Source of the DNA: Gammaproteobacteria bacterium
GTDB taxonomy: Bacteria > Pseudomonadota > Gammaproteobacteria > Eutrophobiales > Eutrophobiaceae
Reading direction: 5' to 3'
DNA: 64,000 bases
Assembly: GCA_965222155.1 (NCBI GenBank)
Contig: CBDCTH010000001.1
Location: 31,401 to 95,400, forward strand
In this document: positions 13,806 to 42,768 of the stretch, piece by piece
Layout of the letters: each line of letters starts with the position of its first letter
Numbering within the stretch: the first letter of the stretch is position 1
The notes under the pieces: generated by a model
The model's input: the letters and a program-made list of their open reading frames with translations, nothing else
Database searches by the model: none
Told to the model about the DNA's origin: nothing
Made by a program: the position numbers and the translations under genes

Positions 13806-13823
13806 AATTAAAATATTAAATAA

Positions 13824-14034
13824 ATCCGCAGATGACGCAGATTAACGCAGATGTATTCAGGTATTATTTGTGCCAATCTGCTGGTTATCATTCCCGCGTA
13901 ACCGGGAATCCGGTAAATAAACACTTCCTTGTCATAATGGGTTTTTTGTCTACTGTATGTCTGCATTCACGATGACAACCAGAAAGACATGAAACACTTA
14001 AAATAATCTGCGTTAATCTGCGTCATCTGCGGAT
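13824..14034. repeat. 29-bp perfect inverted repeat enclosing a REP-like hairpin; one arm encodes the fhcA C-terminus and stop
   Basis: ATCCGCAGATGACGCAGATTAACGCAGAT (13824-13852) and reverse complement (14006-14034). Confidence 0.85.
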
Positions 14035-15689
14035 AAATCCTGTTTGCAATCATGTACCAGCAGTGGATGTTGATTATATCCTTCCAGTTCATCCCGGCTG
14101 ATTTTGAAATTTTCCAGGTTCATGGTCATGTATCTGTCAAAATAGCGTTTCAGGGGTTTTTCTATGCCCCGGTCGTAATCCGGTTCGACCACGTGACTGC
14201 TGGTAGCCGGTATGGCGCAGACCTTGCCGTTCCTGACGCAGAGTTCGCCGCGTTTGAATACGTATTCCGGTCTGCTGAACATGGTCTCTGCGTTGTCATC
14301 AGGCTTATAGACGGTGATATCCGCCGTTGCCCCTATCCCCAGGTGGCCGAGGTTTCTCAGTCCCAGGCTCCTTGCCGGCGCAGCCCGGGTGAGAATAGCA
14401 ATTTCGTATAATGAATATTCCCGGTCGATTGAAGACAGGATGCTTGCGCTTGCGGCATCCTTGTTGATAGTGGCTAACATGTCGTTGCGAAATCCCTTGT
14501 CCATGAGCAGCCTTATCAAATGCGGATAGGAAGTAAATGGCGCGCCGTTCGGGTGATCGGTGGTCAGGAAAACACGCCAGGGGTCATTAATGAGTAAAAA
14601 TATTTCCAGGCCGATACACCACTGCAAGGCATTGACGAAATTTCTGTCCCGGTAGCGGAAAGGCACCACGCCACAGCCGGCATCGCATTCTATGTCCATG
14701 CAGACCCATTTTTTCGGATGGGCATGAATGTGACCCTTATGCTGCATCATGGTATCGGCGGATGCGGTAATCGTTTGGCCGAACATGATCTGGCCGACGT
14801 CAATGGATACGTTTCCGTTCCGGTTGACAGCCTCTGCTACCTGTGCTGCCGCGGACGAGAATTTCCTGTCCCCCTCCTGTCCGTAACTGTAGAATTGTAC
14901 ATGGGCCAGGTGTAACGGCTTGCCCTCCGCCGCGGCAATGGTGTCAAGTGTCGTCTGGTAATTGCCCGGTACCCCCAGGTTGCAGCCATGCACGTGCAGG
15001 GGATGAGGAACGCCGAGCTCGTCCAGTGCATCAAGCAGCGCGGCCATAATGTTACGGGGCGTTATTCCGTAACCGATGTTTTTTTCATCCAGGTCCAGCT
15101 TTCTCTGGTTGAACTTGAACGCGCTGATCCCGCCAGGGTTCACTACCTTGACGCCCATTGCCCGTGCGGCGTGGATTGTCCAGGCCACATAATCATTTAT
15201 CACGGACTGTTCTTTTTTGCCTTGCAGCAGGCGCAGCAGGAAATCGTCGTTGCCGAGCAGTACATAAGCGCCCGTGTCCAGCATGGGGGTATCCGCCATT
15301 TCCAGGTGTGACGGGCGGGCATTCACAGGCATCATCGCCGGTTCGAAACAGGTGGTATAGCCCATTTCGGCATAACGGTAGCCGGTGACAAAACTGGTAG
15401 GGGCAATAGTGCCGGAACCTGAGTGCGTCAAGGCGCTTGAGGCTACCGCACTGGTGCTATGGTCCTCCGCCAGTAATAACCTGGCGATATTGACCTTGCC
15501 CCCGCCGATGTGGGTATGGATATCGATACCGCCTGCCATGACGATGCGGCCGTTCAGGTCTATCAACTGGTGAATTTTTTGATCCGGCGCCGGTTTGACC
15601 AGCTTGCCATCCTGTACGTACAAGTCCATGATTTTGCCGTCTATCCCGTTGCATGGGTCATAGACCTTGCCGCCTTCGAGCTTGATCAT
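14013..15689 (-). CDS. fhcA: formyltransferase/hydrolase subunit A (amidohydrolase)
   Basis: GGIDIHTH, HPLHVH, HVQF, TTDHPNG. Confidence 0.93.
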   Translation of the reverse strand: MIKLEGGKVYDPCNGIDGKIMDLYVQDGKLVKPAPDQKIHQLIDLNGRIVMAGGIDIHTHIGGGKVNIARLLLAEDHSTSAVASSALTHSGSGTIAPTSFVTGYRYAEMGYTTCFEPAMMPVNARPSHLEMADTPMLDTGAYVLLGNDDFLLRLLQGKKEQSVINDYVAWTIHAARAMGVKVVNPGGISAFKFNQRKLDLDEKNIGYGITPRNIMAALLDALDELGVPHPLHVHGCNLGVPGNYQTTLDTIAAAEGKPLHLAHVQFYSYGQEGDRKFSSAAAQVAEAVNRNGNVSIDVGQIMFGQTITASADTMMQHKGHIHAHPKKWVCMDIECDAGCGVVPFRYRDRNFVNALQWCIGLEIFLLINDPWRVFLTTDHPNGAPFTSYPHLIRLLMDKGFRNDMLATINKDAASASILSSIDREYSLYEIAILTRAAPARSLGLRNLGHLGIGATADITVYKPDDNAETMFSRPEYVFKRGELCVRNGKVCAIPATSSHVVEPDYDRGIEKPLKRYFDRYMTMNLENFKISRDELEGYNQHPLLVHDCKQDLSADDAD

Positions 15690-15710
15690 ACTGTCTCCCT
15701 GTTAATTTTC

Positions 15711-15804
15711 GTCACCCTTCCGGGCTTGATCCGGAATCCAGTCTGAACTTGCGTCGCTGAAAGAGTCGCATCTTTTCCTGGATTCCGGCATTCGCCGGAA
15801 TGAC
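15711..15804. repeat. REP-like doublet (GGATTCCGG...CCGGAATGAC family)
   Basis: Two inverted hairpin units; same family at about 13885-13912, 41645-41781 and 42565-42730. Confidence 0.8.
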
Positions 15805-15828
15805 TGCTCAGCCTCATACATGGCTTGT

Positions 15829-17136
15829 TCATGTCAGATTGCCCTCTATACAAGAGATAATTTCCCTGATGACCCAGGCAGCGCTGCGAGAACCGCTATC
15901 CCTCACTTGTTTCAGGGGCATGTTGATGATGTTGTCCGTCCTGAACAGACTGCCGGTGTGGTCAATGCCGGGGATTCCCACTGGAATATAAACGTCGGCG
16001 TCTGTCGCTCCGGTTCGGTATGGGGATAAAATAATCGTGGGGACGTCTAACGCCGGAGGAGTGTCGTCCGTAAAGGTCGAGATCCATAACAAACTGTCCA
16101 CGGCAGATAGGTCCGTGTCGATGCCGGACGGGCATCCTGAACGGAAATTGACATCGGTCGGGAATCCGGTCTGCCAGGTCGCCACACTCTGGAACGATGC
16201 AGCGCCGTTACTGCCGCTGAGTGACAATCCGGCGAAGCGCTGCCTGGTGTTCAGGTCGCGCGCCAGGTCCAGTATTGAACTGATGATCAGGTCGGCGTGA
16301 TCCTGCGGCAGTGCTGCCGGGCACCATACCAGCACGCCATAGTCCGCATCCCGGATTATCCCGGCAACCTGGTTCAGTTTGCGGTTTTTTGCCGCCGGTA
16401 TAGTCTGGTAGTCAGACAGTTGTTCATCTGCCAGTTTGGTGCGCAACAACGCCAGGTTGTCGGCTATTTCATCACCGTGTCCGGAAACAACCACGGGAGC
16501 GTGGTCATTGAATTCATTCAACTCCTGCGTGCCGGGTCGGCCCAGGTAGGCCAGTTTCCTGTTTTTTGATGTGCGCCATCCCGGGCGCGCCCCCTTCGGG
16601 CGCCCTTCGGGCGTCCAAATCTGTTCCGGACAGATTTGTCCGACGAACAGGGAATAGGGGGTGTTGATGAAACGTTCAATGAACCGGGGATAATCCCCGG
16701 TAACGTTGTTACCGATAAAGATGATGGTATCCGCCCTGTTTTTCACCTCTGCCAGGGTGGTCATCATCCCGCCCCGGGTCTGTAGCGCTTTCAGGTTATG
16801 GCCGGCATGGTGTTTGTGTGCCTGCAGGAGAGCGGCATCGACCTTTTCGGCCAGCCGCAGGGCCGCGCGTATGCCGTCTACGTCGGTGCCGAGGCCGGCA
16901 ATCAACGGTTTGCCGGACTGTTGCAGAATCCTGGATGCGGCTGTTACAGCCTGGTCGATGGTAGTCGGAACGCCTTTCAGTCTTGCTTGCGCAGGAGGCA
17001 GGGGCGCAGCAAAACCCTGGCCGGCAAGCCGGCAGTCATTGGCGGATACGTCAAGCTGCTGCTGTTTGTTACGGACCGTCAGGTCATCACACAAAAGGCT
17101 GCAAAACGGGCAGGTTACATTCGCTATTGACGCCAT
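15829..17136 (-). CDS. fhcB: formyltransferase/hydrolase subunit B, lacking the Mo/W-ligating Cys, with a 24-aa repeat-derived insertion
   Basis: CPFCSLLCDD N-terminus, TLAEVKNRAD, TWQTGFP; no CHGP motif. Confidence 0.88.
   Translation of the reverse strand: MASIANVTCPFCSLLCDDLTVRNKQQQLDVSANDCRLAGQGFAAPLPPAQARLKGVPTTIDQAVTAASRILQQSGKPLIAGLGTDVDGIRAALRLAEKVDAALLQAHKHHAGHNLKALQTRGGMMTTLAEVKNRADTIIFIGNNVTGDYPRFIERFINTPYSLFVGQICPEQIWTPEGRPKGARPGWRTSKNRKLAYLGRPGTQELNEFNDHAPVVVSGHGDEIADNLALLRTKLADEQLSDYQTIPAAKNRKLNQVAGIIRDADYGVLVWCPAALPQDHADLIISSILDLARDLNTRQRFAGLSLSGSNGAASFQSVATWQTGFPTDVNFRSGCPSGIDTDLSAVDSLLWISTFTDDTPPALDVPTIILSPYRTGATDADVYIPVGIPGIDHTGSLFRTDNIINMPLKQVRDSGSRSAAWVIREIISCIEGNLT
16569..16640. 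repeat. 72-bp palindromic element inserted in frame in fhcB
   Basis: Homologous to intergenic copies at 18619-18690 and 30921-30991. Confidence 0.85.
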
Positions 17137-17151
17137 CTGGTGTTAATAAAT

Positions 17152-18525
17152 TCAGTCCAGCAGGGCCAGCATTTCGTCGATTGAGGTATATTTCTCCCTG
17201 GGTTTCCCTGCTGTCTGGCCGCGTGTGATTTCGGCGGCGTCGATTTTTTTCCAATCGGAGAAACTGATATGACGGACCCCGCGCCGGTCGAGAATTTCAC
17301 AACAACCTGCGGCGCCGCTTTTGCTCTCGCCGGTGTCCAGCTTGTTGATATCTTCCAGCATCATACCCACCGTCTCCACACTGTCCGCCTTGTTGGTGCC
17401 GATGATGCCGGTGGGACCGCGCTTAATCCAGCCGGCCGTGTATAACCCGTGGTCCACGGCGCCGTCCTTGATGATCCTGCCTTTATCGTTGGAAAAAACA
17501 CCGCGGGATTCATCAAACGGCACTCCGAACATGGGTATGCCGTGGTAGCCTATACTGCGAAAGACGATCCCGGCGTCAATAGTGAGCGTTTCTCCGCTGC
17601 CCCTCGCAGACTGCCGGAATGGTTCCCCTGACAAGGTGTTTTTTTCTATCAGCAGCCGTTCTACCCTGCCGTCGCCAAGCATTTCCCTGGGGCTCTTCAG
17701 GAAGGTAAAAATGCAGTGCTTGTCCGTGGTCAGTTCCCGGTCGGCAAAACCGCAGAACAGGTCATAGATTTTTTTACTGCCGGCATTGGTCTTGTCGGCC
17801 AGCTCTGTTTCGCTTTCCGGGTTTAACACCAGTTCGTTTGCATCAATCACCGGGTCGCAAGCAGCCAGCGCCCCGAACTCCTTCAACTCCTTGGAGGTGA
17901 ACTTGGCCTGTGCAGGACCGCGCCGGCCGATAACGTAGATGTTTTTGATTTTACTGTCAGCCAGTGCATCCAGGGCATGCTCGGCAATATCCGTGTGTTT
18001 TAATTCGTCAACGGTTTTGGCCAGGATCCGGCTTACATCGGCGGCAACATTCCCCTGGCCGATAATGACCGCCGTTTCGTGGGACAGGTCAAATTTCCGC
18101 TCGCGATAATCAGGATGGCCGTTATACCAGCCGACAAATTCCGTTGCCGTGTAGCTGCCCTGTAGGTCTTCTCCCGGGATGCCGAGACGGCGGTCGGTTT
18201 CGGCGCCGCAGGTCAGGATCAGCGCGTGATGGGTTGCCCGTAATTCGGCAATGCTGATGTCCTTGCCGGTGGTCACGTTTCCTATGTAATTGAACTGTTC
18301 CGCTTCAGCGATCCTGGCGTAGACGTTGATAACCTGTTTCAGTTTCGGGTGATCCGGCGCAACACCGCTCCTTACCAGGCCGTAGGGCACGGGCAGCCGT
18401 TCGAACATGTTAATCCTGACTTCGAGGTCGGCTTTGATGAGTGCATCAATGGCATAGAAGCCACTTGGACCGCTGCCGACTACGGCAACTATCAAGGGGT
18501 TGTTCCGGGTTCCTAATCGACTCAT
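17152..18525 (-). CDS. ferredoxin--NADP+ reductase (adrenodoxin reductase/FprA type)
   Basis: VVGSGPSG, GLVRSGVAPDH, IGQGNVA.D, GWIKRGPTGIIGTN. Confidence 0.9.
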   Translation of the reverse strand: MSRLGTRNNPLIVAVVGSGPSGFYAIDALIKADLEVRINMFERLPVPYGLVRSGVAPDHPKLKQVINVYARIAEAEQFNYIGNVTTGKDISIAELRATHHALILTCGAETDRRLGIPGEDLQGSYTATEFVGWYNGHPDYRERKFDLSHETAVIIGQGNVAADVSRILAKTVDELKHTDIAEHALDALADSKIKNIYVIGRRGPAQAKFTSKELKEFGALAACDPVIDANELVLNPESETELADKTNAGSKKIYDLFCGFADRELTTDKHCIFTFLKSPREMLGDGRVERLLIEKNTLSGEPFRQSARGSGETLTIDAGIVFRSIGYHGIPMFGVPFDESRGVFSNDKGRIIKDGAVDHGLYTAGWIKRGPTGIIGTNKADSVETVGMMLEDINKLDTGESKSGAAGCCEILDRRGVRHISFSDWKKIDAAEITRGQTAGKPREKYTSIDEMLALLD

Positions 18526-18543
18526 GATTCACGTTATTGTATT

Positions 18544-18779
18544 TAACCCTGATATTGCGTCAGTGGATGTGCCCTCACTTGTCTTTTTTGCACTGGCGGG
18601 TACGTGCTTCCTCAACCAGACAAATCTGCCAGGAGCAGATTTGGACGTCCGCAGGGCGCCCGCAGGGGGCGCCCCAAGGATGGGGCGCATCAACTACGGC
18701 TATGCTTTCGGTCGCAGGCACCCGCCAGCACAAAAAATCCAGCGTGATCTTCACATCCACTGACACAATATCAGGGTTA
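18544..18779. repeat. nested palindromic repeat cluster
   Basis: Outer 28-bp IR (18544-18571 / 18752-18779, 1 mismatch) encloses a CTGGCGGGT...ACCCGCCAG element, which encloses the 72-bp element. Confidence 0.8.
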
Positions 18780-18876
18780 GAAAGGAAAACGAATCCCGAC
18801 GACCCGCCGCCGCGCCGTACGGGTCAGTTCGGGGATGAAACAGCTAAACAGATTACAGGCTAGCCATATATGCGGG

Positions 18877-19182
18877 CTAGAAACCCAGAGCGGCTTTCTT
18901 TTCGTCCGCGCCGGGTAACGGATCCATGGTGTCGGCACAGACCGGGAGTACCTTGGATTTTTCCGCGTTGATGTCTATCCATTCGAATTTGTCTTCGGGC
19001 AGGTCATCTTCCTCATAGATGGCCTGGACCGGGCATTCCGGTAGGCATGCACTACAATCGATACAGACCTCCGGGTCTATATACAGCATCTCGTCGTCAT
19101 AGTGAAAACACTCCACCGGGCATACCGTGACGCAATCGGTATAACGACAGTCTTTACAGTTATCAGTTACGATGGTTGTCAT
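18877..19182 (-). CDS. 7Fe-type ferredoxin (FdxA-like)
   Basis: CKDCRYTDCVTVCP and CIDCSACLPECP. Confidence 0.9.
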   Translation of the reverse strand: MTTIVTDNCKDCRYTDCVTVCPVECFHYDDEMLYIDPEVCIDCSACLPECPVQAIYEEDDLPEDKFEWIDINAEKSKVLPVCADTMDPLPGADEKKAALGF

Positions 19183-19236
19183 GATATTCTCCTATATAAG
19201 CTGTTCTGAAATAAGTCAACCCCGGCAGTCACGGTT

Positions 19237-20046
19237 CTATCCAGCATATAATAATATTTCTCCCCGGTTCAACTCAACACTGTCGCCACAGTAACGTTTG
19301 AATAAACCCTGCAGGTATTCTTCACCTATCGCAAAGACATCCATCAGGTGGAGCAGGTAAAGCATAATGTAACCTGGCCGGTAAGTACATGAATAGCTGA
19401 ATGTGGGCAGCAAATGTGCGCTCTTCAGACTGACGATGGTGCCCCGCTTCATGCCCGCCCCGGTCCGGATGCCGAGTTCTCCGAGTACAAAAATGCTACC
19501 GGAGAGCATATTGACCCCGGTGAAGTCACCGCTGTTGCCGGCAACGGCGATCAGCCCGTTGCGCATTGCATTGCCGGTCTCGTTTCGCACGTTGCCGTGA
19601 ATGATGATTTCCCCACCTTCCATGCCCATGGTTGCGCCCCGATAGGCACTCCCCACCATGTGGCCTGCATTGCCGTGAATCTCAATTCTGCCTCCGGACA
19701 TCTCCGGCCCGACCCAGTCGGCGGCATTGCCGATAACCCTGATTTCGCCCCCGCTCATGGCGGCCCCAAGGTGTTCGCCGACGTCACCTTCCACCTGGAT
19801 GGTCCCCCGTGACATACCGGCGCCGATAAGTTTTACCCGCCCCAGGTGGTCCCCCTGCACGTTGATGACCCCGTCGGACTGGCCTGTCACACTGAAGAAG
19901 TCACCGATATAACGGGCTTCACTGCCATGCATGACTTCCAGTTTTTCCACGCTTGCCGGTGTCTGGCCGGCGAACCGGGCAGGGGTGATGTTATCCGCCT
20001 CCAGGGGTACGTCCGGCGTTGCAATCTGTTTCAGTGATATAGGCAT
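19237..20046 (-). CDS. fwdC: formylmethanofuran dehydrogenase subunit C
   Basis: GxxMxxG repeats, GAGMKRGT; paralog of fhcC. Confidence 0.88.
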   Translation of the reverse strand: MPISLKQIATPDVPLEADNITPARFAGQTPASVEKLEVMHGSEARYIGDFFSVTGQSDGVINVQGDHLGRVKLIGAGMSRGTIQVEGDVGEHLGAAMSGGEIRVIGNAADWVGPEMSGGRIEIHGNAGHMVGSAYRGATMGMEGGEIIIHGNVRNETGNAMRNGLIAVAGNSGDFTGVNMLSGSIFVLGELGIRTGAGMKRGTIVSLKSAHLLPTFSYSCTYRPGYIMLYLLHLMDVFAIGEEYLQGLFKRYCGDSVELNRGEILLYAG

Positions 20047-20061
20047 ATCAACATCCTGTCA

Positions 20062-20946
20062 CTACAAGTTCAGTTCGTGCAGGTTAATCTTGTATTGTCC
20101 GAGGTTGCCCCCATAGTTGCCGGCGGTAATTTGCCTGATCCCCGGTTTTGCGGCGGCCTGGATGCCTGCAGCCATGGCTTGCTTCACTGCTTGTTCCGTC
20201 AGGCCGTCAATCACGATTTCAAGGGCGCAGTTGACGTCTGCCGGGAGGCTGCTGTCGGTTACCGCTTTCAGCGTGGGACAGTAGGCGTCATTGGTGGACG
20301 CGGGCAGGGTCTTGTAACGTGAACCCACTTTGCTGCCACTGCGCACGACGCCATTGGGAAAGGGCAGGATAATATCTTTTATCGCTCCCATGGCCCGGGT
20401 GGCTGCGCCGGCCGCAGCCAGGGTTTTTTTCTCATCCGTTCCCAGTATGATGATATTACCTCCACCTACTGCCTGCTGTACGGCAAACGATTCTTCCACG
20501 GTAAACTCACCATCCATGACCGGGATACGCCAGAAACGCCGCTCTGCCAGCTTCTTGCTGCCCTGGAAACCATCGCCGAAATAACGCAGTAGTGAACCTA
20601 CCTGGACTATCTCATCACCATCCAGGCCGTTGAAACAAGCCGTAGTCGGGCAGGTCATCACGCATTGGCCGATACGTTCAAGCAGGCGCTTGCCCACCGA
20701 TGCTTTGTCCATGGCGAATAACAGGATGCTGACGCCTGGCCGACGGTCCGGGGTCTGATCGGATGACAGAAAGCCCTCAATGCCGGCCTCACATTTACAG
20801 CCGATCACCGAGGTGGCAAACCCGGTCATCGATTGCGCCGCGGCCTGGCACCACTGTTTGGTCGCCGCGGTGACGATCACCCGCGCCCCCCACATTTTGA
20901 AGGCCTCGGCAAAAGTTCCGACAATTTCAGTTGACCTGATTTTCAT
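20062..20946 (-). CDS. ftr: formylmethanofuran:H4MPT formyltransferase, second copy
   Basis: TFAEAF, TPDRRPG, GSKVGSRY, AGNYGGNLG. Confidence 0.92.
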   Translation of the reverse strand: MKIRSTEIVGTFAEAFKMWGARVIVTAATKQWCQAAAQSMTGFATSVIGCKCEAGIEGFLSSDQTPDRRPGVSILLFAMDKASVGKRLLERIGQCVMTCPTTACFNGLDGDEIVQVGSLLRYFGDGFQGSKKLAERRFWRIPVMDGEFTVEESFAVQQAVGGGNIIILGTDEKKTLAAAGAATRAMGAIKDIILPFPNGVVRSGSKVGSRYKTLPASTNDAYCPTLKAVTDSSLPADVNCALEIVIDGLTEQAVKQAMAAGIQAAAKPGIRQITAGNYGGNLGQYKINLHELNL

Positions 20947-22586
20947 TCTGATACCGTTGCGATTACTTCATGGTCATGCAGGTAACTGTCATTGACTGCA
21001 TAATTGGGGAATTCGATAGAATAATAACTCTCAAAAAACGGCCTTACTTCTGCGACTATGGATTCATCGTATTCAGGTTCCGTATGCAGGAATTTCCCGT
21101 AGAAATCCCGGCGGAACTCGTGGTTTTCGATAATGACGTTACCTGATTTGATCACGTAACGGGGCGCGTTGAACATGGCCTCCTTATCGTCCATTTCATC
21201 GTAGATGGTGATGTCCGCATCGGCGCCCGGCCCCAGGTGGCCTTTGTTTTTCAGGTTCAGAGCCCGGGCCGGTCCGGCGCGGGTAATGATGGCTATCTCA
21301 TTGAGTGTATATTCACGCTCCAGTTCATTCAATAAGGTGCCGTTAACGGCTTTCTGGTTGACGCGCTTGATTTCCTCCTTGCGGAATTCCTTGTCCATCA
21401 GCAGGCGGATCAGCTTTGGGTAACTCATAAAGGAACCACCGTTCGGATGATCAGTGGACAGAACGATACGCCAGGGGTCTTTTGACAGCAGGAACAATTC
21501 CAGGCCGATGGCCCATTGCAGGGCATGAACATAGACATGTTCCTGGTAGCTGAACGGAACGATGCCACAACCGCTTTCGCACTCCGTATCGGCATTTACC
21601 CATTTCGCTTTTTTGAAGCCCCTGAGCATATAGGCCAGTGGCGCGTCCGCAGTCATGATCGTGGCTTTACCGAACATGACTTGGCCGACGTCGCAGGTGA
21701 TATTGGGGTGGTCGTTAACGTACTCGGCGATCTGCCGGGACGCGGATTTAGGGTTCTTGCCGGGCTCTCCCGCGTAGCTGTGGAACTGTATATGGGCCAG
21801 GTGCACGCGCCTGTCGCCGGCCGTTCTCATGGTCTCCAGGGTAGTCTCGAAGTTGCCGCTATGGCCCAGGTTGTTGCAGTGAATATGGGGCGGATGCGGT
21901 AAACCCAATTCATTCACTGTTTCAATAAATGCATCGATAACCTGTCGGGGTGAGACTTCTATGACTTCACTTTTTTCATCGATATTCTTGACGTTGGAGT
22001 TCTTTTTACCCTTCCAGGGCTCATCTCCGCCCGGGTTCACCAGTTTGGCCGTGTAGGCCTTGGTTGCGTTGATCCACCAGGCTACTGCGTGACGGAATTC
22101 CTGTTTACGCCCGGCCTTGAGCAATTGCTGCAAAAAAATATTATTGCCCAGCAGCACGTAAAATCCCTTATCTATAACCGGCGTATCGTGGAATTCTTCA
22201 ATAGTATGGCGGGCGCCGATAGGAGTGACGGCCGCTTCCATGGCGGTCGTGTAGCCCAGGGTGGCATAACGGTATCCCGTTGCAAAGGTGGAAGGAACGG
22301 TGCCGCCGGCGCCGGACCGGGTGTGTTCCGTAGCGGGGTGGGGGTCACGGCGGTGGTCTTCGGGCTGCAGTTTCCTGGCCAGGTTTACCTTGGGGCCGGC
22401 TATGTGGCAGTGGATATCCACGCCGCCGGGCATTACCACCATGCCGCTGACGTCAATTCTCAAGGGTTTGGAGGTAGGAGTTTCGACTATGCGTCCCTGC
22501 TCCAGATAAAGGTCCTTTATTTCCCCGTCAATGCCGTTGGCTGGGTCATGAACCTTGCCCCCTGTAAGTTGAATGCACTCCGTCAT
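20943..22586 (-). CDS. fwdA: formylmethanofuran dehydrogenase subunit A
   Basis: GGVDIHCH, HIHCNNLG, HIQF, STDHPNGG. Confidence 0.92.
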   Translation of the reverse strand: MTECIQLTGGKVHDPANGIDGEIKDLYLEQGRIVETPTSKPLRIDVSGMVVMPGGVDIHCHIAGPKVNLARKLQPEDHRRDPHPATEHTRSGAGGTVPSTFATGYRYATLGYTTAMEAAVTPIGARHTIEEFHDTPVIDKGFYVLLGNNIFLQQLLKAGRKQEFRHAVAWWINATKAYTAKLVNPGGDEPWKGKKNSNVKNIDEKSEVIEVSPRQVIDAFIETVNELGLPHPPHIHCNNLGHSGNFETTLETMRTAGDRRVHLAHIQFHSYAGEPGKNPKSASRQIAEYVNDHPNITCDVGQVMFGKATIMTADAPLAYMLRGFKKAKWVNADTECESGCGIVPFSYQEHVYVHALQWAIGLELFLLSKDPWRIVLSTDHPNGGSFMSYPKLIRLLMDKEFRKEEIKRVNQKAVNGTLLNELEREYTLNEIAIITRAGPARALNLKNKGHLGPGADADITIYDEMDDKEAMFNAPRYVIKSGNVIIENHEFRRDFYGKFLHTEPEYDESIVAEVRPFFESYYSIEFPNYAVNDSYLHDHEVIATVSE

Positions 22587-22615
22587 ATTGTCTGCATAGG
22601 CGCCGCGGCTTTGTT

Positions 22616-22810
22616 AGCCCGTATTTCGCACCAGGTGATGCGCCCTCGCTTGTCTTTGTGCCGCCAGCGGGCACGTGTTCATTGCGCCCATCCCCCTGCT
22701 CAACTCCATACAGGGGCAGGCTCTGGGCGCAACCCTGCGGGCGGCCTGTGCCGTGCAAATTGTCTGTCCTGACGATTTGTCATCGCATCACCTGGTGCGA
22801 AATACGGGCT
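22616..22810. repeat. nested palindromic repeat cluster overlapping the fwdB 3' end
   Basis: 27-bp perfect IR (22616-22642 / 22784-22810) enclosing members of the 72-bp-type and 28-bp hairpin families. Confidence 0.82.
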
Positions 22811-24147
22811 GCGCCGGTTGTTCCTCTGGCCTGGCCTTTTGCCAGCACCAGTTCACGCACGCGTTTTTTGATTGCCGTCAGAATTTCCTCATCGGTCGGG
22901 AAAGGTGAGTCAAAGGCTTTACGCAAGGTGATGGGCACGTCGTCCATGCGGTAGACGGTGCCGGCCGTGTTAATGCCGTAGGTGGATGTCCGGAACGCCA
23001 CGTGCGCCAGCTTGCTGGTTATGGTGGTTTTGGTGTCCAGACATACAAAAGGAATTTTTGCCAGGTGGTCAATGGCCGCCTGGGGAAAATTGGATGCGGG
23101 GTCGGTGGCTATGATCAAGGCAGCATCGGCATCCCGCTTGGACAGCAAATCAACGGTGGTGAACTCGCCCGGGTTGAAACGGGGGAAACCACGGCTGAAA
23201 TTGACGCCGAAGGGATAACCGGTCTGCCAGGACATGACGTTATCGGCGCCGGTTACATTGCCATGGCCCCGCACAGGCTTGGCAACAAAATGGGTATATT
23301 CGTTCAGGTCCGTGGCCAGGGCCAGCAGGGCGCCTGAATTAAAGTGCCGGCCGCGGGTCATGGTCAGGCCCATGCCGAAAAACAACACGCCGTAGCGGCA
23401 CGCTTTCATCCTGTCGACCAGTTCCTCCAGGGTTTCCAGGCTGACCCCGGTAATTTCTTCGATATCGGGGTCTATCCTGCGGCTTTTGACCAATGCGCGT
23501 AACGCCCATAATACTTCAAAGTCCTTGCCAGGCTTCACCTGGATAAACTGGTTGGCTGCCGGTGTGCTGGGTGTCCTGCGTACGTCAACCAGGACTACAT
23601 GCCGATCTTTTTTGCCGCGGGGCGTGAACATTCCTTTGGCTGTGACCGCATAGCGGCCAAAGTGGCGCGGGTGGGATTCGGCCGGATTGCCGCCCCAGTA
23701 AATGACCAGGTCGGCGCGGTTTTTCACCTCGCCCAGAGTCATGGTGCTTTCACCCACTCCCTGGAGGGCAATGCCCGATGGCCCGTGGCAGACAGAAGTC
23801 GTAGTATCAATGTTGCCCTTGATGATATCGGCAATGGCTACGGCTTGCTTTTGCGCCTCACAGGTGGTGTCGCTGAGACCGTAAGTGATAGGGAACCTGG
23901 CGTTGACCAGGGTCCTGGCGGCTTCTTCCACGGCTTCATCAATGGAGACAGGCTGATTATCAATCAGCGCGGCAGGTGCGCCTTCTTCTATGTAGTGTTC
24001 CGCAAACCAGGCGCGGCCGAGTACGCAGGCGTTTTTCGCCTTGATAATGCGCTTTTTGTCCAGGTCCACCGTCAGTATCATGTCGTCACAGACACAACCA
24101 CAGAAAGTACAGGTGGCATTTTCTACAACTTTGATGTTTTCACTCAT
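22780..24147 (-). CDS. fwdB: formylmethanofuran dehydrogenase subunit B (Mo/W-bisPGD catalytic type)
   Basis: CTFCGCVCDD...C FeS motif, TSVCHGPS with catalytic Cys, TLGEVKNRAD, RGHGNV. Confidence 0.9.
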   Translation of the reverse strand: MSENIKVVENATCTFCGCVCDDMILTVDLDKKRIIKAKNACVLGRAWFAEHYIEEGAPAALIDNQPVSIDEAVEEAARTLVNARFPITYGLSDTTCEAQKQAVAIADIIKGNIDTTTSVCHGPSGIALQGVGESTMTLGEVKNRADLVIYWGGNPAESHPRHFGRYAVTAKGMFTPRGKKDRHVVLVDVRRTPSTPAANQFIQVKPGKDFEVLWALRALVKSRRIDPDIEEITGVSLETLEELVDRMKACRYGVLFFGMGLTMTRGRHFNSGALLALATDLNEYTHFVAKPVRGHGNVTGADNVMSWQTGYPFGVNFSRGFPRFNPGEFTTVDLLSKRDADAALIIATDPASNFPQAAIDHLAKIPFVCLDTKTTITSKLAHVAFRTSTYGINTAGTVYRMDDVPITLRKAFDSPFPTDEEILTAIKKRVRELVLAKGQARGTTGAARISHQVMR

Positions 24148-24179
24148 GATTTCTCCCCACGGAATCGCGGCAAGCTATT

Positions 24180-24524
24180 TTAACTGATTTTTTCCACCTG
24201 GACAGAAATATGTTTTGACAGGGGCATGCCGCTGCCGGCGGTATCGCTCTCCATCAGGCGGCTGGAAGTAGGGCCATAGGCGATGAAGATCATGCCCTGA
24301 GGCAGGTCGGTGGCTTTTTTTGGAACACAGGTAACAACGACCTCGCCGATATGATTTTTCAGACGCAGCTTATCGCCGCTGTCGAAACCAAGACGGGCCA
24401 TATCATCCGCATTTATTTCAACGGTGGATGTGACTTCCCGATACTCGTCGCCGAGTTTTCCCTTGTTAAGGGAAGTCCCTTGCTTACTGGATCGTCCCGG
24501 GATCAACAACATGGTTACAGGCAT
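24180..24524 (-). CDS. fwdD: formylmethanofuran dehydrogenase subunit D (molybdopterin dinucleotide-binding)
   Basis: LIPGRS..QG, INADD..RLG, G.IFIAYGP, T.GSGMP.SK. Confidence 0.85.
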   Translation of the reverse strand: MPVTMLLIPGRSSKQGTSLNKGKLGDEYREVTSTVEINADDMARLGFDSGDKLRLKNHIGEVVVTCVPKKATDLPQGMIFIAYGPTSSRLMESDTAGSGMPLSKHISVQVEKIS

Positions 24525-24674: not shown

Positions 24675-24750
24675 CTTAGAATTTATGGTTGTCCCGTATT
24701 AGAATATCCCCGCTTAGAATTTATGGGTGTCCCAAATTAGAATATCCCCG
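24675..24750. repeat. 2 x 38-bp imperfect direct repeat in the fwdD/mptG divergent region
   Basis: CTTAGAATTTATGGKTGTCCC..ATTAGAATATCCCCG at 24675 and 24713. Confidence 0.8.
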
Positions 24751-29032: not shown

Positions 29033-29734
29033 CTATATTTTCTGTAGCTGAAGCAAATGCCCGGATGTGATCTTTTTGTTGTGCAAAGATGAGGCAAGCA
29101 GCGCCCCGTGCACGCCGTGGGCGCTGAGCAGGCGCAAGTCATCCGCGTTACGCACGCCTCCGGCTGCATAGACCTGTTTGTCAGGCAGTTTATCGATCAG
29201 ATTACAGATGCGTTCCAGATCAGGCCCCCTATTGCTGCCTATCCGTTCCAGGGCCATAAGGATCAGGCGTTGCGGCAATAGATCAGGTCGCTCCAGCAAG
29301 TCTATATTGCCCAGAAGGCGTCTGCCGGTGTAATCCAGTGATAAGATACTATCCGGTTTACGCGTATAATCAGCGAGTTGATCGATGGCGATTCCAGTTT
29401 CCGAGCCCAGTACGTTGCTGACGCGATCCTGGAATGGACTGGAGTTTTCGCTGATGAACAGCTTCAGGCCTGAATCTATCCATAAGCTGATTTCGTCGTT
29501 AGTCTCCAGTAATCGAGTGATGAGGGCGTGGTTGTTGCCGTTATTTTCAATGGCATTGAGATCCGCGATGTAAAATGTCTTGAATGGGAATACCGACAGG
29601 TAGGCGCGGGTGACGGCCAGGATATCCGGTTCCGGACAAAGCGGCGTAGCCAGGGGCCGGTATGTTTGTCTTTTCCCCTGCCTGGCCGTAACTACCAGGC
29701 CGTCTTTCAAGTCGATGACGGGTATAATATGCAT
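29033..29734 (-). CDS. HisA/HisF-like TIM barrel (Orf17 of H4MPT clusters)
   Basis: MHIIPVIDLKDG.VV, YIADLNAI, YAAGGVRN. Confidence 0.85.
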   Translation of the reverse strand: MHIIPVIDLKDGLVVTARQGKRQTYRPLATPLCPEPDILAVTRAYLSVFPFKTFYIADLNAIENNGNNHALITRLLETNDEISLWIDSGLKLFISENSSPFQDRVSNVLGSETGIAIDQLADYTRKPDSILSLDYTGRRLLGNIDLLERPDLLPQRLILMALERIGSNRGPDLERICNLIDKLPDKQVYAAGGVRNADDLRLLSAHGVHGALLASSLHNKKITSGHLLQLQKI

Positions 29735-30781
29735 GTGGAAAATTATACAGGTTGGGATATTGGCGGCGCACATTTAAAGATCGCCAGTCTGGATAAAAAC
29801 GGGGCACTGTGTACCCTGGGCCAGTTTGCCACTCCATTATGGCAAGGCATCGATATGCTGAAGGATCCCGTCACCCGGGCGGTCAATTCTCTGCCTTCAG
29901 GTAACTGTGTCCATACCCTGACCATGACCGGAGAACTGGCAGACTGCTTTCCAGGACGCCGGGACGGGGTGATACAACTGGTGGATTATATATCGGCTCG
30001 GCTTGGCCCTAGTACCCCGCTCTATGTGTATGCAGGCAGCAAAGGTTTGGTAACGCCTGACCGGGTGCCTGACTGTCATACCGACATCGCCTCAGCCAAC
30101 TGGCATGCAACTGCGACTTATGTTGCCAAATACCTGGGATCAGGAATTCTGATAGACCTGGGTACTACCACAACCGATATCATTCCTTTCCATGAACACC
30201 AGGTTTGTAGCCGCGGCTACACCGACCAGGAGCGGTTGAGAACCGGTGAACTGGTGTATACGGGCATAACGAGAACGCCTGTTATGGCAGTCCTTGAGCG
30301 CGTACCGTACAAGGATGTGTGGCAATCAATCGCGGCGGAGTATTTTGCCGGCATGGCGGACGTATACCGTATCACCGGTGACCTGGATGAACGCTTCGAT
30401 TTAATGCCCGCGGCTGACGCGGGTGAGAAAACCCGCTACCATAGCGTTAAACGCCTGGCGAGGATGCTAGGAGCGGAATATAACACAACGGATGCTATTG
30501 AGCCCTGGTTGGATGTAGCACATCATATCGCTGAAAAACAATTTGAAAGAATCGACCAGGCTTTCAATAACGTTACGGACAGGCTGGGAAAAACCGTACG
30601 GAACAACATCGTTGCTGCTGGAGCAGGGCGCTTTATTATTGAGAAACTGGCACAGAAGAATAACTACGGGGTAATTGATTTTGAGGATTTATTGCCAACT
30701 TCCGACAAGAATTTGCGCGCCGTCAATAATTGCTCAACAGCGGTGGCAGTCGCCGGATTAACCCGCATGTTGCACCTTTGA
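29729..30781 (+). CDS. hydantoinase/oxoprolinase-family protein (Orf9, MfnF-like)
   Basis: GWDIGGAHLK, TMTGELADCF, SANW.A, DLGTTTTDI, GELVYTG. Confidence 0.85.
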   Translation: MHVENYTGWDIGGAHLKIASLDKNGALCTLGQFATPLWQGIDMLKDPVTRAVNSLPSGNCVHTLTMTGELADCFPGRRDGVIQLVDYISARLGPSTPLYVYAGSKGLVTPDRVPDCHTDIASANWHATATYVAKYLGSGILIDLGTTTTDIIPFHEHQVCSRGYTDQERLRTGELVYTGITRTPVMAVLERVPYKDVWQSIAAEYFAGMADVYRITGDLDERFDLMPAADAGEKTRYHSVKRLARMLGAEYNTTDAIEPWLDVAHHIAEKQFERIDQAFNNVTDRLGKTVRNNIVAAGAGRFIIEKLAQKNNYGVIDFEDLLPTSDKNLRAVNNCSTAVAVAGLTRMLHL

Positions 30782-30811
30782 ATATGATGACAAATCATCA
30801 GAACGGGTGTA

Positions 30812-31170
30812 ATGACAAATCGTCAGGACAGACGATTTACAAAGTACGTCCTGTACTTTGCCCCGTTGGGGCTAGCCCGCATTTCTCACCAGTTGATGCG
30901 ATGATCGTGCCGGATTTTAGATGTGCGCCTTCCATGGCGCACACCCTGCGGGCATCCTTCGGATGTCCAAATCTGCTCCGGGCAGATTTGTGCCGCCAGC
31001 GGGTGCCTGCGACCGAAAGCATAGCCGTAGTTCTGGTTGAGGGACAAATTGTCAGGACAGACAATTTGCACGGCGACAGCCGCCCGCAGGGTTGCGCCCA
31101 GAGCCTGCCCCCCTGCTTACAACCGCAGGGGCAAGCTCTGTATGGAGTTGAGCAGGGGGAAGTGCGCAAT
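30812..31170. repeat. composite cluster of nested palindromic elements between orf9 and pabB
   Basis: Contains segments homologous to elements at 16569, 18590-18732 and 22616-22790. Confidence 0.82.
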
Positions 31171-32521
31171 GAAGCTGGTTGAACTGGATTATGCCCGGGA
31201 CTCGGCGCTGTTGTTCAGTCGTATTGCCGGCGAACCGTGGAGCATTTTCCTGGACAGCGGATATCCGCTGATTGACAGGGGCCGTTACGACATAATGACT
31301 GCCCGACCCTACCGAACCCTTGTGACTTATGGTGATGAAACCCGGATAGCCGACGGGAAGACTCTGCAACACTCGGGGGAAGACCCGTTTGACCTGGTCA
31401 GACGGCAGTTGGGTGAACGCCGCATCAATTTATCCGGGTTCCCGTTTTCCGGCGGGGCGCTGGGGTATTTCTCCTACGACCTGGGACGCCGTATAGAACA
31501 GTTGCCGGCGCTGTGCCGGGATGATATCAACATGCCGGATATGGCCATAGGCCTGTATGACTGGGCGTTGATTGTCGATCACCATAGAAGACGAACCTGG
31601 TTGATTGCAGCAGACGAGACCAGGCTCGGCGTTGAAGAGTGGAGGGCTCTGCAGGATTTGTTCAACAGTGACAATACGCGGGAATCGGTGGGCCATTCGG
31701 TACAATCGCGCTTGCTGAATCACACCGACAAGGAGCAATATAGCGCCGCCTTTAACCGGATTCAACGCTATATCCGCGACGGTGACTGCTACCAGGTCAA
31801 CCTGGCCCAGCGTTTCAGCGTTGCCGTCACAGGCGATTCATGGAGCGTTTACCGGCAGTTAAGAAAATCCAACCCTGCTCCCTATGCCTGCTTTTTCCGG
31901 CTTGAGCAGGGCTGCATCCTGAGTTCGTCGCCGGAACGGTTTATTTCCGTATCCAATGATCAGGTAGAGACCAAGCCCATCAAGGGTACCATCAGGCGCT
32001 CTGTTTATGCCTATGAAGATAAAGCCCTGGCAGAACAATTGCTTGAGAGCGAAAAGGACCGGGCGGAAAATCTGATGATCGTGGACTTGCTGAGAAATGA
32101 TATCGGCAAGAATTGTGAAATCGGCAGCGTCATGGTCCCCAGGTTATTCGCCCTGGAAAGTTTTGCCACCGTACATCACCTGGTAAGCACTGTGACCGGC
32201 CGGCTGGCACGGAGCAAACACGCGCTTGATTTATTGCGAGGAGCTTTCCCGGGGGGGTCCATAACGGGCGCGCCCAAACTTCGGGCCATGCAGATTATCG
32301 AAGAACTGGAGGCTTATCGCCGTACCGTTTATTGCGGCGCCATCGGCTATATCGGGTTTGACGGTAATATGGATACCAATATTGCGATACGTACCCTGGT
32401 ACATAAAGATGACAGGATTTATTTCTGGGCAGGCGGAGGAATAGTAGCTGACTCCGTACCAGAAAGTGAATACAGGGAGTGCTTTACCAAGGCCGAGGCT
32501 ATTATGCGGCTGTTTGAGTAG
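31169..32521 (+). CDS. pabB: aminodeoxychorismate synthase component I
   Basis: FLDSG, GD.YQVNLAQRF, SSSPERF, PIKGT, KDRAENLMIVDLLRND, FPGGSITGAPK; upstream ORF extension is repeat-derived. Confidence 0.93.
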   Translation: MKLVELDYARDSALLFSRIAGEPWSIFLDSGYPLIDRGRYDIMTARPYRTLVTYGDETRIADGKTLQHSGEDPFDLVRRQLGERRINLSGFPFSGGALGYFSYDLGRRIEQLPALCRDDINMPDMAIGLYDWALIVDHHRRRTWLIAADETRLGVEEWRALQDLFNSDNTRESVGHSVQSRLLNHTDKEQYSAAFNRIQRYIRDGDCYQVNLAQRFSVAVTGDSWSVYRQLRKSNPAPYACFFRLEQGCILSSSPERFISVSNDQVETKPIKGTIRRSVYAYEDKALAEQLLESEKDRAENLMIVDLLRNDIGKNCEIGSVMVPRLFALESFATVHHLVSTVTGRLARSKHALDLLRGAFPGGSITGAPKLRAMQIIEELEAYRRTVYCGAIGYIGFDGNMDTNIAIRTLVHKDDRIYFWAGGGIVADSVPESEYRECFTKAEAIMRLFE

Positions 32522-32565
32522 ACCTTCTATTACCCTGTGAGCTCTGTGGCTGAACAATTTCCAAA

Positions 32566-33337: not shown

Positions 33338-33356
33338 GACAAGTTAGAATAAGAAA

Positions 33357-33390
33357 GCCTGGCGCCTGAAGGAGGTTGGAGGCGCCAGGC
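33357..33390 (-). terminator. probable terminator downstream of nrdB
   Basis: GCCTGGCGCCT / AGGCGCCAGGC stem followed by TTTCTT on the minus strand. Confidence 0.6.
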
Positions 33391-33462
33391 AATAGCCGAG
33401 CTTCCTGCTGGGCTTCCCGCTGAAATTGTTTTACCGGGTCTGTTTAGCCGGATCAGTCACCG

Positions 33463-34683: not shown

Positions 34684-34759
34684 CCGTCATCATGATGGTT
34701 CATGTTTCCGATATATATGTAATCTACCGGGAGCTTTGCAGAAGCCTGTTCCCGGCCCG

Positions 34760-38839: not shown

Positions 38840-38925
38840 AACTTGTTAATATTGAAATTACCGTCTGCGGGGCTTGTTAAAGACCCGGAAACGAGATGAA
38901 GCTTGTCACGTGGAAATAATTATTG

Positions 38926-38975
38926 CACTACTACATTGTGTGGTCAAGTGGTATTTACACTACAATACCTTGTGG
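38926..38975. promoter_or_regulatory. two probable NrdR boxes
   Basis: ACTACTACATTGTGTG and CTACAATACCTTGTGG upstream of nrdA. Confidence 0.6.
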
Positions 38976-39004
38976 ATTCTGCTGTGACTTAGCTTTGGAT
39001 TTCG

Positions 39005-39013
39005 TGTGGATAA
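39005..39013 (-). promoter_or_regulatory. DnaA box upstream of nrdA
   Basis: TGTGGATAA (=TTATCCACA), degenerate copies nearby. Confidence 0.6.
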
Positions 39014-39164
39014 GCTGCGTAAAAAACTGTGCAAAAACTTGTGGAACAGAATAAAATGCAGCGTTTTCAATAATCTGCCCTGGTTAGCATAAGTTGTCGT
39101 AATATATTGTTTGAAGCTGCTCAACGGTAGATGAAAAATAACAGAGAGAGAGAGAATTAAGCGT

Positions 39165-40592: not shown

Positions 40593-40605
40593 CTGATGCG
40601 GGCGT

Positions 40606-40680
40606 GACCAGTATGTCAGGGATTCACGGGTGGCTGCTATCTACGAAGGCGCCAACGGCATTCAGGCACTGGACCTGTAA
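40606..40680 (+). pseudogene. acyl-CoA dehydrogenase C-terminal fragment
   Basis: Reads DQYVRDSRVAAIYEGANGIQALDL*. Confidence 0.75.
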
Positions 40681-40695
40681 CAAGCTTATCTTCCT

Positions 40696-41586
40696 TCAAT
40701 CCCGGCTGAATACGAATTTATCCTTCTCTCTCCTTACCGGGGGTTTGATGGTGGGGCGGCCTTTTTTCAGTTTGCCCAGAGCGTAGCCTTGCACTTTGGA
40801 GGCTTGCGTGATGATGGTGAATTTCATCAGCCAGCCGCTTGCCGTGGCCAGGATGCAGGCAAGCAGCGCCAGGGGTCCCAGCAGCGCTGGCTGGACTATG
40901 ATCGTGACAAGCAGAAGCAGCGGCAGGGCGTTTCCAAGGATGACATGCGGCCTGTTGATGCCGTCCAGGATTTTCAGTGCAGCCCGGGGGGCGTTGTTAA
41001 GCGCCAGCTGTTGCCGGTAATGTTGCCAGCTCACCAGCCGGCAGCCCAGCAGACCCATCAGCAGGTACAGGAGCCACATTTGTTCGGCATTGGAAAAAAT
41101 CAGCAGGATGGACAGGATGGCCGTGCCTTCTGTAAGGCCGGTACTGATGATCAGCGGCACCACCGCCGGTTCCCGCCAGGCCGGAATGCCTTTGCTGGCC
41201 TTCAGGATTCTGCCCTGGCAATAGAGGAACAGGAAACCCAGCAGGCCGGCGCTGGCCAGCAGCGCAGGCGCCTGCATCAACACGCCTATGAAGGTAGCGG
41301 CGAACAGCAATACCGAGACAGATGCTTCCCGGGTCATCCAGGAAGTCTGGGGATGAAAAAATACGTGCAGGAAACGCCAGGGCCGGCCGATCTCCAACCA
41401 CACGAGAAATAATCCCAGGCTCACGAACAGTAGCGCCGCCAGGCCGATGACCAGTGTCGGTGTGTTCGGCCAGGATGAGATAGCCGCCATCAGTATCAGG
41501 GCGCCGCCGCTGCCGCCAAACATGAAATTACCTGCAGCGCGCCAGTCCCACTGGGTCTGTAAGGCATTTCCGAAAGTATTTTGCAT
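40696..41586 (-). CDS. DmsC-family membrane anchor, PadD-like
   Basis: QWDWRAAGNFMFGG, EIGRPWR, SWMTRE; many TM helices. Confidence 0.8.
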   Translation of the reverse strand: MQNTFGNALQTQWDWRAAGNFMFGGSGGALILMAAISSWPNTPTLVIGLAALLFVSLGLFLVWLEIGRPWRFLHVFFHPQTSWMTREASVSVLLFAATFIGVLMQAPALLASAGLLGFLFLYCQGRILKASKGIPAWREPAVVPLIISTGLTEGTAILSILLIFSNAEQMWLLYLLMGLLGCRLVSWQHYRQQLALNNAPRAALKILDGINRPHVILGNALPLLLLVTIIVQPALLGPLALLACILATASGWLMKFTIITQASKVQGYALGKLKKGRPTIKPPVRREKDKFVFSRD

Positions 41587-41832
41587 AGTTCACCAAACCT
41601 GTCCTGGACGTTGTAACCCAGTGTTGTTTGTTACTGCTCTTATTCGTCATTCCGGCACAAGCCGGAATCCAGTAGAACAGTAAATCTTATAAAGCCAATT
41701 TATCGCAGGCGATAAACATTTTAATGGATTCCGGCCTGCGCCGGAACATTTTAATGGATTCCGGCCTGCGCCGGAATGACGGCCAGAGCGCCGCGCCAGT
41801 CCCATTGAGTCTGTAGTGCATTTCCGAAAGTA

Positions 41833-42516
41833 CTATTCACCCTGCATATCCCCCTGCATTTCTTCGGGTAATTCTTTATCCCACAGGTAATAAAAGCCCG
41901 GTTCCGTACCCAGTTCGGCGTGCATCTGGAACCAGGTGTTCTCGGCCAGCAACTCCGATACGTTGCTGTTTTCGTCCTCTATGTCGCCGAAACTCAGGGC
42001 ATCGGCTATGCAGGAGTTAACACAGGCCGGCGTGGCTTCGGGGTCGATGCCGGGAGTAAGCCCCTTGGCAACGCCGGAGTCCACCCGGTCGGAACAGAAG
42101 GTGCATTTCTGCGCCACGCCCATGGTGCGTTCATCGAAACGCTTCTCTTCGTTCTCGGTGGGCAGGTCGCCGAATGCAAATTCCGGCCTGTCCACCTTGT
42201 AGCGGGCCTGGTAGGGGCAGGCCACGGTGCAATAACTGCAACCGATGCACAGGTCGTAATCAATGGTGACAATACCGTCTTCCCGTTGTCCCGTCGCGGT
42301 GCTGGGACAGACGTGCATACAGGGCGGGTCCGCGCAGTGCTGGCAGCCTACCGGCATAAACAGGCGTTGTACGTCAGGGAACTCACCCCATTCAACGTCC
42401 AGCACCTTGCGCCACTGCACGCCCGGCGGAGTGGCATTGGTATGTTTGCAGGCCGCGGTGCAGGTCTGGCAACCGACGCAGCGGTTCATGTCCGCAATCA
42501 TGACATAGCGCGTCAT
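41833..42516 (-). CDS. four-cluster FeS subunit (DmsB/PadC-like)
   Basis: CVGCQTCTAAC, CQHCADPPC, CIGCSYCTVAC, KCTFC, PACVNSC. Confidence 0.9.
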   Translation of the reverse strand: MTRYVMIADMNRCVGCQTCTAACKHTNATPPGVQWRKVLDVEWGEFPDVQRLFMPVGCQHCADPPCMHVCPSTATGQREDGIVTIDYDLCIGCSYCTVACPYQARYKVDRPEFAFGDLPTENEEKRFDERTMGVAQKCTFCSDRVDSGVAKGLTPGIDPEATPACVNSCIADALSFGDIEDENSNVSELLAENTWFQMHAELGTEPGFYYLWDKELPEEMQGDMQGE

Positions 42517-42768
42517 AGTCCTGCTCCCACAATCGCCCCTGCCTTACGACATGCCAGGGCAAGCATACCGGAGAACGCCGGTATCCAGTCATCTACCACG
42601 ACATAACCAATCATATTCCTGCCCCCACAATCGCAATACCGGCGAACGCCGGTATCCAGTCATCTACCACGACATAACCAATCATATTCCTGCTCCCACA
42701 ATCGCAATACCGGCGAACGCCGGTATCCAGTCATCTACCACGACATAACCAATCATATTCCTGCTCCT
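42513..42768 (-). repeat. tandem 71/71/98-bp repeats encoding three ATGA-coupled mini-ORFs
   Basis: Unit boundaries at 42513, 42611, 42682, 42753. Confidence 0.9.

Follow-up and report, generated by a model that had tools for sequence, protein, structure and literature searches.

MIRUs (mycobacterial interspersed repetitive units), as described in the part of PMC12548453 that deals with them, are short, often tandem repeats between co-directional genes, in which the open reading frame (ORF) of each unit overlaps the neighbouring stop and start (-4 nucleotides, nt), and this design was proposed there to permit insertion with little effect on expression. The relevant sections of the same source describe translational coupling as declining beyond a spacing of ~30–40 nt, and short delivery ORFs (upstream-ORF coupling, bicistronic design) as bringing the ribosome to the next start and melting structure. 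Termination-reinitiation coupling at ATGA and TGATG overlaps is treated in parts of PMC6728339, PMC10666635, and PMC12548453, and the REPIN concept in parts of PMC3116915 and PMC3337134. Here we analyzed a 64,000-nt stretch of DNA (hereafter, the window) from a gammaproteobacterium of the family Eutrophobiaceae (GenBank assembly GCA_965222155.1, contig CBDCTH010000001.1, positions 31,401 to 95,400), in which several repeat-filled spacers between operon genes hold mini-ORFs that bridge the two genes. The original prediction, made from the sequence alone, was that the survival of a repeat insert in an operon requires a relay of ribosomes across it. We found that the mini-ORFs are probably, in the main, a structural by-product of hairpin repeats inserted at ancestral stop/start overlaps, and that no filter acting across the genome demands a bridge.

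The bridging mini-ORFs lie in two C1-pathway gene clusters and in a molybdopterin oxidoreductase operon. The junctions were compared with those of 22 other genomes of the genus, relatives that are not independent of each other. At all six junctions concerned, stop and start overlapped in the uninterrupted form found in these relatives (by 14 nt at orf9/pabB, as ATGA elsewhere), which shows that the window spacers are insertions into overlaps. From this anatomy and these ancestral states, we infer an order of events. REP/REPIN-like palindromes and nested hairpin modules, of which the genome has hundreds of copies, would have landed in gene pairs that were joined by an overlap, and several insertions would have come with a 30–55-nt duplication of the junction; junction duplications border several of the inserts. 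The upstream gene would retain its ATGA, which automatically places an ATG on its stop, and the downstream gene would retain or regain an ATGA of its own. The insert is G+C-rich and stop-poor, and a complete bridge would need only the correct length modulo 3, ~1 in 3 by chance. When the spacers were shuffled at their real length, a bridge was still present in 34–68% of trials. The ATGA on either side of an insert is thus inherited or duplicated from the old overlap, and caution is needed in that it is, alone, no sign of selection.

Between the fhcB-like (17136-15829, minus strand) and fhcA-like (15689-14013, minus) genes, the predicted 48-amino-acid (aa) bridging ORF was present at 15832->15686 (minus) with an ATGA on either side, formed by its ATG together with the fhcB TGA (15832-15829) and by its TGA together with the fhcA ATG (15689-15686). 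The inserted 139-nt spacer (15690..15828) is REPIN-like and consists of two inverted REP-like hairpin units with ~100 and 19 copies in the genome; this inverted REP pair gives the spacer a fold of -45.1 kcal/mol (z -2.66). Inside the spacer, a new Shine-Dalgarno (SD) sequence (AGGGAGA) lies ahead of fhcA. In the relatives, leaving out L027 and L024 which had no usable alignment, the ATGA overlap without spacer was found in 14 of the 19 scored, and three of the four inserts of at least 25 nt were bridged.

The second bridge separates 'padB', a 915-aa molybdopterin oxidoreductase (45500-42753, minus), from 'padC', a 4Fe-4S subunit (42516-41833, minus); the 'pad' names are those of the original prediction and are given no support by the family matches. 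As had been claimed, three chained mini-ORFs were present here, all on the minus strand. The 24-aa m1 (42756->42682) starts on the padB stop (42755-42753), the 24-aa m2 (42685->42611) encodes a peptide identical to that of m1, and the 33-aa m3 (42614->42513) ends on the padC ATG (42516), with ATGA at all four joints, padB stop and padC ATG included. The chain lies in a tandem array of three 71-nt units (42565..42777; Tandem Repeats Finder: period 71, 2.9 copies, 98% matches). Each unit holds the SD sequence GGAGCAGGA, ATGA, a divergent version of padC codons 1–9, and a REP-type hairpin of 9 bp, and the third has an additional in-frame piece of 27 nt. The insert lies between two copies of the junction, each with SD GGAGCAGGA, ATGA, and padC start codons (MIGYVVVDD vs MTRYVMIAD), and the old padC SD and ATG are still within the padB 3' end. 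The SD/ATG/pseudo-padC part of the complete unit occurs at the padB/padC locus only, and the hairpin core has 12 copies in the genome. The junction-duplication unit may then have been amplified to three tandem copies, and amplification alone would propagate the mini-ORF chain because 71 = 3n-1 and the unit holds ATGA.

The number of units at padB/padC was one in the relative G014 and three in the window. The count of three rests on the assembly; short-read contigs of matching DNA runs break inside the array and neither confirm nor contradict it. An RNA-library contig from one relative jumps over 142 nt (equal to two units), with only 26 letters on one side of the joint. RNA runs covered at most 0.13 of the sampled words of the stretch, and these only as contigs of relatives. 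An ATGA or GTGA overlap was found at padB/padC in 13 of 20 relatives, and six of the seven inserts of at least 25 nt were bridged.

At orf9/pabB, a 132-aa ORF (30784-31182, plus strand) spans the 387-nt mosaic-repeat spacer between orf9 (29528-30781, plus) and pabB (31169-32521, plus). The ORF had been described as spanning the whole distance between the upstream stop and the downstream start. It exists, and it begins next to the upstream stop, 3 nt past that of orf9 (30781), but it overruns the downstream start. It ends 14 nt inside pabB (ATG 31169) because the TGA there is the ancestral stop of orf9, as found in the relatives, and the ORF would simply have run on to this old stop. The relatives had a 14-nt overlap in 15 of 21 cases, and all four inserts of at least 25 nt were bridged.

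The original prediction was said to fit only partly at fwdB-fwdA and padC-padD, and both reservations were borne out in the sequence. At fwdB (24147-22780, minus) and fwdA (22586-20943, minus), a nested-hairpin repeat (22587..22810, minus), which holds a 27-aa ORF (22783->22700), entered the fwdB coding region 30 nt ahead of the stop, and the repeat now encodes the nine C-terminal residues of fwdB (ARISHQVMR) as well as its stop. The original fwdB tail (NKAAAPMQTI and stop; 22583..22616, minus), recognized by comparison with relatives, is stranded and unused, and it still overlaps the fwdA ATG by ATGA. This overlap was found in 5 of 10 relatives, and one of three inserts of at least 25 nt was bridged.

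The spacer between padC and 'padD', an NrfD-like membrane subunit (41586-40696, minus), occupies 41587..41832 and is made of a duplicated 48-nt padD 5' end (41792-41839 = 41538-41585) and a REPIN-type stem of 27 bp (-74.9 kcal/mol, z -9.4). The left copy of the duplicated padD 5' end has lost its ATG, and no bridging ORF was found in this spacer. In the relatives, the uninterrupted junction was an ATGA overlap in five cases, another short overlap in two (-8 and -11 nt), and a 1-nt spacer in one. Inserts were found in 13 instances, the window counted, and only 2 of them were bridged.

A further junction, fhcA/fhcD, is split by an insertion element (12468-13806, 1339 nt, minus), which has inverted ends and a target duplication of 9 nt (ATTTTAATT); the genome has two copies of the element, the second at 99.9% identity. 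The 52-aa ORF in this spacer (13966->13808, minus) had been taken as a bridge that ended 2 nt before fhcD (12460-11552, minus) until an IS4 element inserted. The ORF exists, and its TAA lies 2 nt ahead of the fhcD ATG (12460) when the element is excised in silico; its first codon, however, is 46 nt past the fhcA stop (14013) and not on that stop. The insertion element itself is present, but the label IS4 was not confirmed, as its 262-aa and 76-aa proteins had no Pfam match and the 262-aa protein had no NCBIfam match either. Among 19 relatives, the ATGA overlap was found in 5 and varied inserts in 14; two of these 14 inserts, all of at least 25 nt, were bridged (one event) and 12 were not. The C-terminal end of fhcA (..YPQMTQIN; 13990-14040 in the window) is itself repeat sequence, in a version common to several relatives.

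Further junctions of the clusters, which the original prediction had not flagged, were scored in the same way for inserts of at least 25 nt. At pabB/mfnE, one of 10 inserts was bridged, and the figures were one of one at fwdA/ftr and one of two at ftr/fwdC. The repeat-filled fwdA/ftr spacer of L035 (G031) contains a run of N, and the 52-codon bridge scored there is uncertain. At fhcD/fhcC, genome G032 had a clean bridge (ATGA, 24 codons, ATGA) with a 32-nt junction duplication; otherwise, there was one insert without a bridge and two unclear cases, with L024 and L029 left out because of an ambiguous start codon. We also left out gog/fhcB, whose start codon is uncertain, and fwdD/fwdB, where the spacer of ~31 nt is native rather than inserted. 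Together, these junctions form a natural record of overlapping gene pairs split by repeats, with junction duplications, repeat-encoded C-termini (fwdB, fhcA), and stranded tails.

To count bridges across the genome, as had been proposed with the original prediction, we used genes from our own hexamer-model caller (4369 called, 3714 robust ones kept) and masked a spacer base as repeat when it had at least 10 BLAST matches in the genome. The test set was 451 repeat-bearing co-directional spacers of 60–499 nt, and a bridge was considered strict when it started between -4 and +9 of the upstream stop and ended between -9 and +15 of the downstream start. The antisense strand was judged unfair as the only control for strict bridges, since on it the spacer is not bounded by a stop and a start codon, and flank-keeping shuffles and frame rotations, which keep local composition, were added. 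Dinucleotide shuffles understate chance because real stops cluster in the A+T-rich spacer ends, hence the rotation control.

No sense-strand excess of open frames was found: a stop-free frame crossed the spacer in 86 of the 451 on the sense strand, compared with 106 on the antisense strand and 72.8 in dinucleotide shuffles. Strict stop-to-start bridges were present on the sense strand in 22 spacers (5%), and 429 (95%) had none. There was no frame bias either, with 27 overlap-type start/stop pairs in frame and 51 out of frame (27/78, equal to chance), and the frame was open in 4 of the 27 and 7 of the 51. Of 18 repeat-bearing ATGA...ATGA junctions, seven were in frame and two were complete bridges. 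The sole other repeat-bearing spacer with a perfect ATGA-ORF-ATGA bridge (65 aa) is at G000 C12:1926386-1926575 (minus). The periods of tandem repeats in co-directional spacers fell into the three classes modulo 3 as 14/17/14, and a preference for 3n-1 periods at co-directional junctions was rejected.

Several results nevertheless weigh against regarding the bridges as by-products. The 22 strict bridges compare with counts of 8 for the antisense strand, 7.9 for shuffles, and 7–15 for eight frame rotations (mean 10.9), and with ATG starts only, 14 compare with 6, 4.1, and a rotation mean of 6.1, although these numbers depend on gene calls from our own hexamer caller, in which some downstream starts lie inside repeat arms. 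In the relatives, 16 of 36 inserted junctions were bridged, against 6.9 expected from shuffles, the instances not being independent. Outside the window genome, four of five independent ATGA...ATGA insert events were in frame and open, for which the chance at one-third each is ~0.045 by our own arithmetic for at least four of five, the junctions having been chosen partly on the window pattern. At padB/padC, the relay frame fits every spacer (67, 70, 79, 79, and 97 nt) and every window unit (71, 71, and 98 nt), and among the length differences are a compensating pair (+1/+8) and two nested insertions of +27.

The roughly twofold excess of strict bridges over the controls, together with the four examples in the window, speaks for the rule that repeat inserts persist in operons only if a stop-free ORF relays ribosomes across them. 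However, a similar excess in repeat-free spacers (40 strict bridges vs a rotation mean of 27.4) means that repeats do not account for it specifically. Starts called within repeat arms also inflate the excess in part: in at least 4 of the 22 strict bridges the downstream 'start' lies inside an arm (ATGCGGG), and one more has a doubtful upstream gene, all of which were counted. The low share of bridged spacers and the lack of an open-frame excess or a frame bias further argue against the rule. Moreover, unbridged inserts are common in this pathway at junctions that overlapped ancestrally, where most inserts of the relatives had no bridge (12/14 at fhcA/fhcD, 11/13 at padC/padD, and 9/10 at pabB/mfnE). 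As ancestrally coupled junctions tolerate inserts that lack a bridge, survival of inserts 'only if' ribosomes are relayed is refuted, and we consider the general rule very improbable. If true, it would have meant that translation polices the placement of mobile repeats inside operons, which does not hold in this genome.

A weaker, local form of the relay idea fared better, with the bridge apparently kept by selection at padB/padC, where six genomes retain the frame. There, and possibly at fhcB/fhcA, the mini-ORFs may be translated and coupling may survive the 236-nt insert: a padB ribosome would restart at the overlapping ATG, read the hairpin unit or units, stop on the next ATGA, and restart, and selection would keep the frame and not the peptide. 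All six genomes with a hairpin insert at padB/padC had a perfect ATGA-ORF-ATGA bridge. Their inserts belong to two hairpin types that are unrelated to each other (GGATACCGGC..GCCGGTAT and GGGGACGGATTT.AAATCCGTCCCC). The indels are in frame or compensating as given above, and the bridge peptides have only the duplicated GAG(L/I) end in common. Initiation would be expected at the old padC SD and ATG inside the padB 3' end, and three of the four fhcB/fhcA inserts were bridged. A relay would also suit the fading of coupling past ~30–40 nt, which MIRUs were proposed to solve likewise (PMC12548453, in the part on these elements). On the other hand, the cases are few and come from junctions that were selected because of the pattern seen in the window, and one relative (G003) has a 65-nt padB/padC spacer without a bridge. 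An SD lies directly ahead of the padC ATG, so padC may not need coupling, and the neighbouring padC/padD junction tolerates its unbridged inserts, one of them with a stem of -75 kcal/mol. In an unbiased scan of the genome, repeat-bearing junction duplications were found at five places, and the one at padB/padC alone was bridged. We give a local relay, which is compatible with the mini-ORFs being mainly by-products of insertion, a little under an even chance. The padB/padC array could serve to test termination-reinitiation chained over more than 200 nt.

A more far-reaching scenario joins these elements: hairpins landing in ATGA overlaps would be repaired by junction duplication, and at tightly coupled pairs selection would hold the 3n-1 length for a relay, giving in this genus an independent, REP-derived, MIRU-like strategy with tandem amplification. 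The four of five open, in-frame events outside the window genome and the six frame-keeping padB/padC inserts speak for it, but we regard it as rather unlikely. We also considered that the mini-ORFs encode functional micropeptides, for which their ATG starts and the SD sequences ahead of m1–m3 could be cited. This appears extremely improbable, as relatives that differ in their hairpins have the frame but not the peptide sequence in common, the sequences derive from repeats and are found elsewhere in both orientations, and the 52-aa ORF of the fhcA/fhcD spacer had no Pfam match. The by-product reading remains the one that we prefer for the mini-ORFs as a whole.

The repeats themselves belong to several families. 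One palindrome family (GTCATTCCGGC...GCCGGAAT type) has ~100 copies, a nested-hairpin module mosaic has 60–90 copies, and others occur too, with many elements being mosaics of nested modules. Repeats were present in 933 of the 2437 spacers of at least 40 nt, with similar shares in co-directional (37%), divergent (37%), and convergent (45%) spacers, and therefore without preference for operon junctions. We also asked of the nested (family-B) module whether its ATGA ends are built to supply gene stops and starts, and rejected this: 2 of 55 left ends coincide with the stop of a gene and 3 of 110 right ends with a start, and the orientation is random. Profile matches to the Y1 transposase PF01797 numbered three in the genome; no REP pattern was found within 1.5 kb of them, a few patterns having been tried, and a link of the REP-like repeats to RAYT was accordingly not established.

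Other repeated features of the genome were observed beside these families. On the small contigs C2 and C3, three 58–59-aa ORFs (G000 C2:16908-17076, C3:3005-3176, and C3:3680-3848) have an ATGA at either end and SD regions that are near-identical; these are probably genuine small genes of a repeated module and not repeat bridges. Two long arrays (G000 C12:582525-585992 and C12:2251601-2253253) with periods of 72–73 and 67–68 nt and 65–80% unit matches carry the signature of CRISPR arrays. In the window, a large repeated block (5200-10720) has 300-nt units in triplicate, three tandem 297-nt units at 6214-7107, and runs with a 21-nt period (CTTCATCTGCCGGTCGGT...), and it may represent a repeated coiled-coil-type gene family. 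Two tandem 38-nt units (24675-24750) in the divergent region between fwdD and a GHMP-kinase gene may be a regulatory site.

The genes of the loci were annotated by NCBIfam/Pfam matches. In addition to those located above, the minus strand carries fwdD (24524-24180), ftr (20946-20062), and fwdC (20046-19237), followed by a ferredoxin gene and a GOGAT-small-subunit-like gene between fwdC and fhcB, and fhcC (11536-10715) after fhcD. A full Fwd-type cluster, FwdD included, is directly upstream of an Fhc-type cluster (14013-24524). The plus strand carries mch, a CitG-like gene, fae, and then orf9, and an MfnE-like gene follows pabB. In fhcB, only the N-terminal part matches the subunit-B model, at 224 bits (cut-off 328).

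The repeats of these loci can be compared with known systems at several levels. Like REP/REPIN elements, which RAYT transposases mobilize, they are short, imperfect, mostly extragenic palindromes of high copy number (~100), and they often form inverted doublets that fold as one long hairpin, as in the fhcB/fhcA and padC/padD spacers. They differ from simple REPIN doublets in that many are nested-module mosaics. The ancestral overlaps at all six junctions, and the ATGA at each padB/padC joint, are as in termination-reinitiation coupling; unlike in plain overlap coupling, one or three whole spacer ORFs would have to carry the ribosome. Short delivery ORFs sit in 5' leaders or engineered constructs, unlike the padB/padC mini-ORFs, which lie in repeat insertions between operon genes. 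In the open-access full-text literature, no reports of REP-type inserts as coupled relays were found, and the MIRU passage stood alone. The padB/padC array resembles MIRUs, as far as the cited part of PMC12548453 describes them, in its tandem units of roughly 40–100 nt between co-directional genes, here of 71 nt, and in the sense-strand ORF of each unit with -4 nt overlaps at all joints. It differs from MIRUs in that its unit is found at one locus only and arose from a local junction duplication, not from a dispersed many-locus family of the same design, while the repeats that are dispersed in this genome are without the coupled-ORF design. The host also belongs to another lineage and is a methylotroph-type bacterium with genes of the tetrahydromethanopterin (H4MPT) pathway. 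Judged by its sequence organization, the padB/padC array is probably a candidate for a MIRU-like relay outside mycobacteria.

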